DNA of 17,389 bases from a virus (Duplodnaviria > Heunggongvirae > Uroviricota > Caudoviricetes), in IMG/VR virus record IMGVR_UViG_2671181122_000014, positions 1 to 17,389 of that record. The stretch is one strand, 5' to 3'. The position numbers were made by a program. Below are positions 3,001 through 6,000 of this stretch, piece after piece (the stretch's first letter is position 1; each line of letters begins with the position of its first letter).

Positions 3001-6000
3001 GGACTCCGGTTTTGTGAAGCTGTCGGCTATTTCATTCCGCCAATATTTTCCCACGTCCCGTCAGCACGCAGGATTTGCAGCGGTCTTACCACGCACTGTA
3101 TCTGCTTTTTATCCGCATCCAGTATCACCACCTGCGTGATTACCCTGGCCTGCTCCGGAATAATACCATTCTCATCTGACTCCAGGATGTCTGCCGGTCC
3201 CAGTCGCAGTTGTGCTGTAAGCGACTGCACGTGTTCACGGCCATCATGCTTTCCGCAACCACACAGACGCTGCATAAGTTTTTTTAGTATATTCATGTCA
3301 TTCTCCTGTTCTGCCTGTATCACTGCCCACTTCATCCAGCCCCTTAACATCCTGCCACGGCCCGTCACCAAACCTGACCTGCAAATGCTGAAACACCCCC
3401 TGAACCTGTGTGGCATCTTTGGGGTCAAGAAAGGTCAGTCCGGTGATGAGCGCACCATCTGTACCCGGGAACCAGCCATTGCTGTTTGTCTCAATAATGC
3501 TCGCCGGCCCCAGACGAAAACGGATTTGTGTCTCCCCCGGGTCGCCCTTCGGTCCCTGAGGTCCGGTTGCCCCCACCGGGCCAGCCGCACCTGTTTCTCC
3601 TTTCGGTCCCTGTGGGCCTGCCGCACCGGTATCTCCCTTTGGACCCTGTGGACCTGCATTTCCCGTCAGACCGGTCTCTCCCCGCTCTCCCCTGTCGCCT
3701 TTCGGCCCCTGCGGGCCTGCCGGACCAGTATCTCCTCTCGGCCCCCGTTCGCCGGTTGCCCCGACAGGGCCGGTGTCACCACGCTCTCCCTTATCCCCCT
3801 TCGGCCCCTGAGGGCCGGCGGGCCCCTGTTCCCCCTTTGGCCCGGGAGGTCCCACCACGGTGGGGATTCGGTTTACGGCTTCTTCCGCCGCTATCCTGCT
3901 TTGTTCCGCTGACTGTGCGCTTTCTGCTGACTCCCGGGCTTTTTCTGTTGCGGTCGTTGCATCCCTGGCTGCATTACCGGCTGCACTTTCTGCCGTCTTT
4001 TTTGACAATTCAGCATCTGCTGCACTTTGTGATGACTCAATGGCTTTTTGAGCGGCCGCAGAAGCCGAGGACGAGGACGCATCCTCTGACTGCTTTGCTG
4101 AGGCTGCACTTTCTGCCGCCTGCCGGGCTGACTCCGATGCCTCCCCTGCTGAAGTGTCAGCATTTGCAGCGCTCTCTTCTGCCTGACTGGCTGATATGCC
4201 GGCATTCCTCGCGGACGTCTCCGCCTCTCCGGCATTCTTCTTCGCCTCCTCAGCGTGACGCGCCGCTTCTTCCACCATCAGTTCAAAACGACGCAGTGCC
4301 TCCGGCCGGACGTCATCCTCCGACATGGCACCGAGAAAATCATTCAGCGTACCGGGTTGAGAATCTTCATACACGGTGATGGTCCCGGCATGTGACGGCG
4401 GGAATCCTTCCACCAACAGAATGACGCTGTACTGACCGTACTCAACGTCCATGCTGTAACGACCGGCTTCATCCGGATTTTCAGAGGCCACCGTGTTCAC
4501 CACCACCGTGCTGCTGGTCCGTCTGGCTTTCAGTTGAATGGTGCAGTTCTCTACCGGTTTTCCTGTGCCGTCTTTCAGTACACCTGAAATCTTTACTGCC
4601 ATATTCACCCCACAAAAAAGCCCGCCTGAACCGGCGGGCTGTCATAACACTGTGTTACCTGGCTAATCAGAATTTATAGCCAACACCCACGATGAAGCCG
4701 TCAGTGCGCCAGTCGCCACTGCCGGAACCTTCATAAGCGACATCAACGGCCACGGATTCGGCCGGGTTAAACTGCACGCCAGCTCCCCACGCCAGAGAGG
4801 TGTTACTGTGGCGAGCGTCATCACTTCCGGTCAGCACGTCGTGCGTTTTCCCCTTGTTGTCAGTTACGCGAAGATAATCCCCGGAGAAAGTCGACACACG
4901 GCTGTAAGCCACACCCGCCATCGCATACGCGCTGAGCCATTCATTCACGCGCACAGACGGCCCCGCCATTACGCTGAACCAGCGGTTACGCACTGAATCT
5001 TCATGCCAGCGGGTATCGCTGTAACGGATAATCTGGCGATTCTTGTCTCCTGCATAGCTGAATGACGTCACCAGCCCCAGCGTGTCCGTAAACTCATAAC
5101 GGTATTTCACGTTAATGCCCTTCAGGTCATCGCTGCCTGGCATATCAGTATGGGTCTGAAGATACCCGGCGCTTAGTGTGGACTGATGCTCTGCTGCGCT
5201 CGCTGGCGTACCAGCGGCAACCAGCCAGACTACTGCGGACAGAATAACAGCACATAATTTACGCATAATTACCTCTCGCTTTTCTGCAATAAAAAAGGCG
5301 CCATTTCTGGCGCCCGTATATGGGTTATAAAATTCAGCTGATACTGATGCCTGCGGTGGCTTTCTTCATCACCACAACCAGCAAATCGCTGATACTTGCT
5401 GTGGGATACCAGTTATTCACCAGCCATGCTGACACCGAAAACTCCAGCGTCATGTGACCGTGACCGGCAGGCATATCAATAACGCCACTGTAAATCAGCG
5501 TATTATCCAGCGCGGTACGGTTATAAATTTCAGCACCGTTTTTCCGCACTATCAGACGGCATGAGGAGTAAATATCAGTATGCTCTCTCTCATGTTTAGC
5601 GCCACTGAATGCCACCGCCGGAATAACAATCTGCCGGTCAAACGGCTGATCGTCATAAACCCTGACAGTAATGGTCCCTGATGGCCACCGCTCCGGTGCA
5701 CGGGAGTCCCGGGGGAAAGCTTTGCCCACTGTTTTAACGAGATCGCCTTCAATCTGGTTGGCGGACAGTTTTCCCAGAACCCGACAGTTCTCGTTAATCG
5801 TGACGTTGTTGAGCGTCCCGGCGTTCGCATTCACACTGCCACTGATATCCGCATTTTTAGCGGTCAGCTTTCCGTCTGATGTCAGGGAAAATGCCGGAGG
5901 ATTGCCGCCACTGGTAATTGTGGGAGCAATAAGGGTCTTAATCAGCGCTTCATTGAGAAACGTCTGTCCCCCCTGCGTGACCAGTGCTGGAGTGGTGTTA

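Follow-up and report, generated by a model that had tools for sequence, protein, structure and literature searches.

The gene analyzed here corresponds to ORF68 of phage Sp5, the same 89-aa product, which Mondal et al. 2016 (PMC5155283) described as non-essential and for which they proposed a "reservoir" role. Phage lacking ORF68 is still infectious, whereas phage lacking the fibre gene ORF67 is not (PMC5155283). The fibre itself belongs to the EPclA type, defined by the succession of PfN, a coiled-coil region, a collagen segment and PfC (PMC3368898). The EPclA PfC domain alone trimerises and renucleates the collagen triple helix (Ghosh et al. 2012, PMC3368898). Expressed by itself, the domain could be detected only as a thioredoxin fusion, and the recombinant full-length EPclA fibre forms trimers in E. 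coli without the small protein (PMC3368898). The small receptor-binding proteins reported near the central spike (PMC12309495) concern other genes. In PGAP annotation the small ORF appears as "phage tail fiber C-terminal domain-containing protein". That the ORF is homologous to the fibre domain, belongs to a known gene family and is dispensable is already on record, and these points are minor as discovery; what we add is a contrast in selection, a related gene pair in Salmonella, the trace level of its peptides in phi24B, and its decay in dead prophage remnants.

We analyzed a stretch of 17,389 nt (IMG/VR record IMGVR_UViG_2671181122_000014), hereafter the window, to which all coordinates refer. 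The locus is that of a long-tailed lambda-like prophage, with J, lom, the side tail fibre gene stf and the small ORF followed by type III secretion system (T3SS) effector cargo, and all features described below lie on the minus strand. The stf gene (3298..4608), delimited by ORF calling, is listed as 436 aa from a GTG at 4608, with an ATG at 4602 as its likely start. Pfam locates PF08400 at residues 3-135, collagen repeats (PF01391) at 253-310 and PF06820 at 362-425, so that the order of domains (PfN, coiled coil, one collagen segment, PfC) is that of EPclA (PMC3368898). The PfC domain of stf (residues 362-425; 3334..3525), identified by BLASTP and Pfam as a paralogue of the domain in the small ORF, is followed by an 11-residue C-terminal tail (3301..3333) that has no counterpart in the alignments with the small ORF and that presents just two amino-acid variants among the loci analyzed.

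The small ORF (3027..3296; 89 aa plus stop) is supported by the ORF call, by matches to PF06820 and phrog_576, and by annotation both in E. coli genomes (PGAP) and in phage 434. It encodes a stand-alone PfC-domain protein whose orthologues are Sp5 ORF68/ECs1229, phi24B "gp59" and gene 24 of phage 434 (PHROG 576), and these are the same gene, with 89 aa and the same slot and junction in the loci inspected. A terminator-like hairpin with a T-run lies directly 3' of the small ORF (2989..3013), where phage 434 has an annotated terminator, and the late region of the phage ends there; beyond the hairpin lies the effector cargo, the homology of which stops near position 2950. A second terminator-like hairpin separates lom from stf (4619..4640), with the same layout in phage 434, and stf and the small ORF thus form a two-gene unit enclosed by the pair of hairpins. 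The strand of these two genes yielded no sigma-70-like promoter.

The small protein is composed of two parts. Its N-terminal leader (residues 1-27; 3216..3296), delimited by AlphaFold2 (AF2), by comparison with Salmonella and by pN/pS, consists of a short basic amphipathic helix (MNILKKLMQRL), a Cys-containing motif (LCGCGK) and a variable linker. AF2 predicts a helix at residues 3-11, yet with pLDDT below 50 across residues 1-26. We discarded a lipoprotein or signal-peptide reading of the "LCGC" in this leader because, on inspection, the preceding residues are basic or polar, with no hydrophobic core. The remainder is the PfC (Phage_fiber_C) domain (residues 28-89; 3030..3215), delimited by PF06820, AF2 and pN/pS and predicted by AF2 as six beta strands with pLDDT of about 75-82. 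A search by sequence for a solved PfC structure returned none, the sole fibre-related match being to the PfN domain (9e7m/9mgh).

The sequence-only reading had proposed that the small ORF is a diverged, non-recent copy of the stf C-terminal domain, and this proposal holds. BLASTP aligns stf residues 363-424 with residues 29-88 of the small ORF (24/62 identities, 39%; 60% positives; E 5e-12), and the Smith-Waterman score of 107 lies far above the 23 +/- 4 (maximum 45) obtained when the small ORF was shuffled 5000 times (z about 21). Both proteins match PF06820 above its gathering threshold (25 bits) across the whole 64-position model, the small ORF with 119.2 bits (E 9.7e-35; residues 28-89 on model positions 1-64) and stf with 125.1 bits (E 1e-36). 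The small ORF also matches phrog_576 over its full length (E 2e-59; residues 1-89 against all 89 profile positions). At the DNA level, the knob and the small ORF share 53% identity in a codon alignment, and the longest exact word that they have in common measures 10 nt and lies out of register. Across E. coli and Salmonella, the small ORFs are 64% identical to each other and 29-41% identical to either fibre knob, while the fibre knobs are 40% identical to each other; that the small ORFs are closer to one another than either is to the knobs points to an old duplication of the knob.

The small gene is carried by 698 of 5426 complete E. coli genomes, with a median of 11 copies per carrier genome, and 296 phage records contain it at 91-100% identity, among them those of Stx phages and phage 434. 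The same pair of fibre knob and small ORF occurs on short-tailed Stx phages (Sp5, Min27, phi24B) and on long-tailed lambdoids (the window, 434, BP-4795). In Salmonella enterica, a diverged PfC-terminated ORF is followed by an overlapping 79-aa ORF with leader and PfC domain, which has its own AGGAGG and a hairpin downstream. This orthologue (P0230) also matches phrog_576 (E 2e-23) and retains the leader pattern M-x-I-[LF]-KK...G-C-x-K, without the 10-residue linker. The Salmonella loci inspected for this pair, in which the first ORF is of 212 aa, are prophage remnants, so that membership in a live phage is not established. A deep profile search of 1.84 billion representatives returned 94 matches, nearly all of them fragments or chimeras of two Escherichia subfamilies plus the Salmonella pair; partial matches in SprB or CarboxypepD_reg repeat proteins were also seen in this search. 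Among GTDB species representatives, E. albertii was the sole match besides a 725-bp contig in a Xanthomonas assembly, which looks like contamination. When the small ORF and an 82-aa piece of stf were searched against the protein database, only short proteins came back; full-length fibres were missed even by the stf piece, so that these searches are uninformative on fusions. One apparent fusion of collagen and a small-type knob (P0066) starts at the boundary of a draft contig of 3.3 kb and was set aside as unreliable.

Population data show that the small ORF is under stronger purifying selection than the knob of the fibre itself. In 78 loci (pS about 0.12-0.13; small-ORF pN about 0.012), drawn mostly from the 80 IMG/VR loci closest in protein sequence to the query, a sampling that biases pN downwards, pN/pS was 0.09-0.10 for the small-ORF PfC domain, 0.13 for the whole small ORF and 0.28 for its leader, compared to 0.27 for the stf PfC domain. 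Furthermore, the small ORF is intact in inducible phages, whereas its copies in dead prophage remnants (C. rodentium, Salmonella) are truncated or bear stop codons. These observations, together with the conservation of the leader and ribosome-binding site in two genera, contradict the suggestion of the sequence-only reading that the ORF is a passive module left by cassette exchange. Likewise, an stf gene whose reading frame continues through the small ORF, which that reading had proposed to look for in related phages, was not found in the 296 phage records with a small-type knob. The small ORF is a real, translated and phage-functional gene rather than a leftover.

The stf stop codon (TGA) is followed by a single base and the ATG of the small ORF, and a Shine-Dalgarno AGGAG (3303..3307), which the phage 434 annotation gives as a ribosome-binding site, sits within the final stf codons, 6 nt 5' of that ATG. 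The junction GGAGAATGAcATG is identical in 77/83 related loci, bearing out the tight coupling noted from sequence. The expectation that the ORF is expressed is supported by data on the orthologue: the accessible part of the phi24B virion proteome supplement (bioRxiv 10.64898/2026.04.10.717836) lists two peptides unique to it, ADGTWENIGGMK and VITQVVILDADKK, in purified virions, each with at least 3 PSMs, against 2267 PSMs for the fibre gp61. By these figures the small protein is present at a trace level, with at least 6 PSMs over 89 aa versus 2267 over the 649-aa fibre, or roughly 2% per residue.

Taken together, these data identify the small ORF as a real late gene of lambdoid phages that is translated in its own right, and as an ancient paralogue of the PfC knob. 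As for what its product does, we tentatively favour a non-essential accessory factor that may act on the fibre tip in assembly or capping, through a mechanism that we infer as follows. The small protein is made from the stf late transcript via translational coupling and would presumably form a small PfC-type oligomer. Folding of the collagen helix nucleates from the PfC end of the fibre. The small protein could transiently engage or cap the fibre PfC protomers or trimer during assembly, in a putative contact with Stf, and would then mostly leave the finished particle. The trace level in virions fits such a departing factor, and the finding that PfC is undetectable alone until fused to thioredoxin (PMC3368898) leaves room for a helper. 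Since EPclA trimers form without the small protein and no phenotype is reported for the Sp5 deletion, a role in assembly would be at most an effect on efficiency. Moreover, the higher conservation of the small ORF relative to the fibre knob is unlike the expectation for a partner that co-varies with the tip. It is decidedly unlikely that the protein is a "client-mimic" partner that caps or co-assembles with the Stf PfC trimer and so controls the zip-up of the collagen, or that rare +1 read-through at GAA-UGA-C adds a covalent second knob on a few chains per virion; if true, this would constitute a mode of fibre-tip assembly or diversification undescribed for helpers of the Tfa or gp38 type.

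The phi24B peptides bear on several other readings. A trimer of the small protein might dock, through its leader or knob, on the distal face of the Stf PfC or on its tail, and so act as a minor structural tip protein; the resulting tip of two knobs would extend or alter receptor specificity on natural hosts. Peptides in purified phi24B virions speak for this, as do the nearly invariant 11-residue stf tail past the knob, which offers a possible docking site, and a metagenomic collagen-containing fibre-like protein (P0239) in which four PfC-like modules lie in tandem before the collagen segment, indicating that such modules can be stacked in series on one fibre; a role in host range would also be compatible with non-essentiality on K-12. 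The peptide abundance reported for phi24B is nevertheless far below stoichiometry, the small protein is not among the modelled components listed by the phi24B authors, and variation in the small ORF is lower than in the shaft-proximal knob, where a receptor-binding tip should show more. We consider a structural tip protein rather unlikely. If instead the protein, being a free-standing copy of the fibre end domain that is for the most part left out of virions, were a soluble knob, set free at lysis or produced by the lysogen, it could bind the cell-surface ligand of the fibre and, for instance, limit the loss of progeny on debris or exclude superinfection. Such a decoy or blocker is improbable: its identity to the mimicked knob is 39% and it does not track knob polymorphisms, it lacks a signal peptide as well as a separate promoter from which the lysogen could express it, and PfC itself is not known to bind a receptor. 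Infrequent +1 frameshifting at the stop codon of stf (GAA UGA C AUG), generating a minor Stf chain with a second knob for which the small ORF would serve mainly as a 3' exon, would also be compatible with trace peptides (about 2%), and the phi24B authors included hypothetical fusions in the database that they searched and remarked "Spike or just gp59?". Relative to stf, the small ORF is in frame +1 in E. coli as well as in Salmonella, its frame is open for 44 codons 5' of the ATG in the window, and UGA-C is a weak stop context placed after an SD-like AGGAG. However, GAA UGA C offers no slippery codon, re-pairing of GAA on AAU being impossible, and no conserved shifty site such as those of lambda G-T or RF2 prfB. 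Mondal et al. did not find a frameshift signal (PMC5155283), the frame of the Salmonella small ORF closes two codons ahead of its ATG, and no junction peptide is reported in the accessible part of the phi24B proteome supplement. A conserved Shine-Dalgarno, ATG and Met-initiated leader provide a simpler reading. The frameshift is very improbable.

Two further readings were considered. The recombination reservoir or alternative tip cassette put forward by Mondal et al. 2016 (PMC5155283), in which the ORF is donor DNA for swapping the C-terminal knob of the fibre, draws some support from the junctions of the effector cargo, which reflect recombination at fibre-module ends, and from one locus (L095) in which stf is followed by a chimera (P0187) of the small-ORF leader with the end of an stf-type knob and then by a normal small ORF, a rare product of unequal crossover. 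We find it quite improbable, given that 53% shared bases and no exact word above 10 nt make a poor substrate for homologous exchange, that the small-type knob comes with its own N-terminal leader inside the match, not fused to a fibre, in 293 of the 296 phage records, that selection acts at the protein level (pS about 0.13, pN about 0.012) on an ORF with start and ribosome-binding site conserved in two genera, and that no invertase or diversity-generating element lies nearby. A non-functional remnant of an older fibre 3' end, open by chance, might be suspected from the Sp5 deletion, which has no reported phenotype (PMC5155283), and from the many small-ORF fragments scattered in effector islands. 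This reading is barely credible and is largely refuted by the selection data, with purifying selection over dozens of distinct alleles, and by the Salmonella orthologue with the same leader; the peptides listed for phi24B, which indicate translation, and the contrast between intact copies in inducible phages and broken copies in dead remnants also stand against it.

In enterohaemorrhagic E. coli, the genes for the collagen-like side fibres of Stx-converting and other lambdoid phages rank among the phage genes with the most copies, and a conserved partner gene under stronger selection than the fibre tip offers a sensible way into how such fibres are assembled or used. For annotation purposes, the small ORF should be called as a real gene, whereas the labels "tail fiber protein" or "assembly chaperone" need evidence.

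Tfa proteins and other tail-fibre chaperones are not known to resemble the end domain of their client, whereas the small ORF resembles the end domain of its presumed client. Like lambda Tfa, P2 G, Mu U and T4 gp38, it ends the late operon, immediately behind the fibre gene to which it is translationally coupled and with which it is co-transcribed. In phage lambda this slot belongs to the tail fibre assembly gene tfa, to whose product the small protein is unrelated: no Tfa-family match was obtained in Pfam, PHROGs or NCBIfam, its profile matches being PF06820, phrog_576 and phrog_13758 only, with none in NCBIfam. Fragments of classical tfa genes were observed inside the cargo island of other prophages. 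The phage 434 genome record labels the small ORF "tail fiber assembly chaperone", yet it is not needed in the manner of a Tfa-type helper, as seen in the infectious Sp5 ORF68 deletion (PMC5155283) and in the trimerisation of the recombinant fibre without it (PMC3368898). The copy in the window differs from Sp5 ORF68 in its setting, a long-tailed lambda-like prophage rather than the short-tailed Stx2 phage in which the deletion was made. With respect to EPclA PfC, the small ORF belongs to the same domain family, at 39% identity to the stf PfC of the window; unlike a fibre PfC, it is shaftless, carries a 27-residue leader instead, lacks the 11-residue tail and evolves more slowly. Finally, the PfC-like modules of P0239 are covalently linked and N-terminal to the collagen, whereas the second module of this locus is a separate polypeptide.

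This region of the window, read on the minus strand, corresponds to the late/tail end of a lambda-like prophage, in which a J-type tail tip gene (5334-8813, -) is followed by lom (4667-5266, -; Ail_Lom, E 2e-121), stf (3298-4608, -) and the 89-aa small ORF (3027-3296, -), composed of a 27-residue leader and one PfC domain (Pfam PF06820), the fibre end knob. Terminator-like hairpins were identified 3' of J, of lom and of the small ORF (2989-3013, -, for the last), and no sigma-70-like promoter was found between them on the stf/small-ORF strand. Because of these bracketing hairpins and the lack of such a promoter, stf and the small ORF form a two-gene late unit, beyond which lie AT-rich DNA and type III effector cargo. 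On the other side, a same-strand run of ORFs (8874-17380, -) includes one of 853 aa (11192-13753); judged by size and order, these are probably tail genes of the lambda type.

Residues 363-424 of the stf protein align with residues 29-88 of the small ORF at 39% identity (BLASTP, E 5e-12), and both proteins match PF06820 over the entire model (small ORF, E 1e-34; stf, E 1e-36), bearing out the sequence-only reading of the small ORF as a diverged copy of the stf C-terminal domain. The comparison with shuffled controls proposed there agrees, with a local alignment score of 107 against 23 +/- 4 for shuffles (n=5000). At the DNA level, the two copies share 53% of bases in a codon alignment, and their exact matches reach 10 nt at most, a divergence indicative of an old duplication and in line with the same reading's rejection of a recent one. 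The tight coupling that it described between the stf stop and a small-ORF start with a ribosome-binding site also holds: the stf TGA is separated by one base from the small-ORF ATG, AGGAG lies 6 nt upstream, and 77 of 83 related loci have this junction unchanged. Its expectation of expression is likewise supported by the purified phi24B virion proteome (bioRxiv 10.64898/2026.04.10.717836), where the accessible portion of the supplement lists the peptides ADGTWENIGGMK and VITQVVILDADKK, both confined to gp59, the small-ORF orthologue, with at least three PSMs each versus at least 2267 for the fibre gp61. The presence of these gp59-unique peptides in virions shows that the small protein is made; on these minimum counts its level per residue is about 2% of that of the fibre, far under one per fibre chain.

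In two IMG/VR loci (L021 and L045), the sequence immediately 5' of the small-ORF ATG is not stf, and the junction ...GAATGAcATG is retained; the reading frame running up to it there is presumably that of an IS66-family transposase.

A diverged pair is found in Salmonella enterica, mostly subsp. salamae (L096 110-974, GCA_008387015.1), where a 212-aa ORF lacks collagen repeats and has a diverged PfC at its C-terminus. A 79-aa ORF overlaps it by 14 nt; this second ORF combines a PfC domain with a leader of the same pattern (MTIFKKIKHCLFGCDK...), and it is preceded by its own AGGAGG and followed by a hairpin. In the domain, the Salmonella and E. coli small proteins are 64% identical and the two fibre knobs 40%, with 29-41% between small and fibre copies. 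The duplication is therefore older than the separation of the Salmonella and E. coli modules, and both copies have been retained, the small one changing more slowly. The Salmonella loci examined are prophage remnants adjoining effector genes; three of these remnants (L099-L101) carry a small ORF with an in-frame stop and lost cysteines, and the small ORF is truncated in Citrobacter rodentium remnants. This decay in dead prophages fits a phage function rather than host benefit.

Selection was assessed on 78 loci (53 distinct alleles), mostly IMG/VR prophage contigs together with the window and two E. coli genome loci. Most of these are among the 80 IMG/VR matches closest in protein sequence to the query, a choice that biases pN downward in the resulting small-ORF pN/pS values of 0.13 overall, 0.09 for the PfC domain and 0.28 for the leader; the stf PfC domain yielded 0.27 on the same loci. 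With a synonymous diversity of about 0.12 to 0.13, it is the protein that is conserved. We regard the small ORF as very probably a real, translated and selected phage gene, and, given its selection and orthology results, as a reasonable if small subject for experiments.

The stf protein comprises an N-terminal fibre domain (PfN), a coiled coil, a collagen-like triple helix and a 64-residue C-terminal PfC. Its residues 3-95 (window 4310-4602, -) match a solved 94-residue 'Tail fiber protein' chain (9e7m/9mgh, E 1.9e-51), and the tail-attachment end thus has a solved structure whereas the knob does not, no solved PfC structure having been found. The AF2 monomer of the small ORF shows an N-terminal helix, predicted with low confidence, and a beta domain of six strands (pLDDT about 75-82), and its closest structural matches, which are weak, are phage fibre proteins.

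The small ORF is already catalogued and published. PGAP names it 'phage tail fiber C-terminal domain-containing protein', and it belongs to PF06820 and to PHROG 576, whose profile has exactly 89 positions; some database entries give it as a gene of 129-135 aa, in a frame extended upstream. Of 5426 complete E. coli genomes, 698 contain its DNA, and those that do have a median of 11 copies. tblastn located it in 296 phage records, 293 of them matching at least 80% of the 89 residues; the carriers are Stx1 and Stx2 phages, both short- and long-tailed, as well as BP-4795 and the classical phage 434. A 725-bp contig assigned to Xanthomonas pisi DSM 18956 (L085, NZ_JPLE01000138.1) also bears it at 92% protein identity, most likely through E. 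coli contamination of that assembly.

Past the phage terminator, the type III cargo consists of a 196-aa WxxxE-family effector (1987-2577, -; NF053507, E 5e-53; Pfam IpaB_EvcA) and a 291-aa protein (552-1427, -) that matches neither Pfam nor NCBIfam and that other E. coli genomes label 'secretion protein EspS' or 'hypothetical'. In other genomes, such as that of E. coli EC12 (L098 5761-9256, NZ_CP070229.1), short 3' remnants of tfa and of a PfC small ORF lie between effector cassettes. Because such remnants separate the cassettes, the fibre-module end looks like a junction for effector-cargo exchange between lambdoid prophages, which also accounts for the many C-terminal small-ORF fragments in protein databases. 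Another mode of deploying PfC-type modules is seen in a 565-aa protein (P0239; L097 3505-5202, Logan SRR17035117 contig), in which collagen repeats and another domain come after four PfC-like modules in tandem; each module has about 85 residues and closes with ...ILRVRQADGTWKEIPAIKG.

What the small protein does admits several explanations. Four results rule out a passive remnant: selection, the Salmonella pair, the decay seen in dead prophages, and translation. They also contradict the suggestion of a module left by cassette exchange; the sequence-only reading was fully confirmed in its observation and partly right in its interpretation. Mondal et al. (PMC5155283) considered the small ORF possibly 'an intragenomic reservoir sequence', but a recombination reservoir for knob swapping is a weak explanation, since homologous exchange would need coding regions less diverged than these two, selection falls on the protein and the small-type knob nearly always occurs with its own leader in phage records. 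Just one rare product of a crossover between them was seen, in E. coli GCA_005381265.1 (L095 1382-3246), where stf is followed by a 92-aa chimera (P0187), made of the small-ORF leader and first knob part joined to an stf-type knob end, and then by a normal small ORF; the two paralogous domains appear to have undergone unequal crossing-over here. A frameshift fusion of the small ORF to the fibre would be compatible with the available part of the phi24B proteomics, whose search database included hypothetical gp61-gp59 frameshift fusions and in which the authors remark 'Spike or just gp59?' (bioRxiv 10.64898/2026.04.10.717836), and the small-ORF +1 frame of stf has no stop in the 44 codons that precede the ATG (3297-3428, -). 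Such a fusion is nevertheless unlikely: there is no re-pairing site, the Salmonella small-ORF frame is closed two codons before its ATG, the conserved Shine-Dalgarno and start codon account for the data, and Mondal et al. (PMC5155283) reported no frameshift signal.

Neither the trace abundance in virions, as far as the phi24B supplement lists it, nor the slower evolution of the small copy fits a stoichiometric tip protein, although it may be a sub-stoichiometric or loosely bound tip factor. A decoy imitating the fibre knob is hard to reconcile with 39% identity to its supposed model and with a protein that carries no export signal. Tentatively, we favor a dispensable accessory acting on the distal fibre end during assembly, where collagen-helix folding begins, and which may work by resembling its client. 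In phage Sp5, the small ORF (ORF68) is listed with the non-essential late genes and the fibre gene ORF67 is essential (Mondal et al., PMC5155283). Ghosh et al. (PMC3368898) showed that the fibre trimerises through its PfC, which also renucleates the melted collagen helix, and that the whole fibre, expressed alone in E. coli, folds as a trimer.

The phage 434 record labels the small ORF 'tail fiber assembly chaperone', a label that appears to rest on gene position only, because the small ORF falls outside the Tfa families by sequence and, going by the literature, is not required for the fibre. Phage 434 has the same stf and small-ORF two-gene late unit annotated, and the stf protein shares the architecture of the EPclA fibre (Ghosh et al. 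2012, PMC3368898). The tfa gene of lambda occupies the same genomic slot as the small ORF, although the latter is of a different family.
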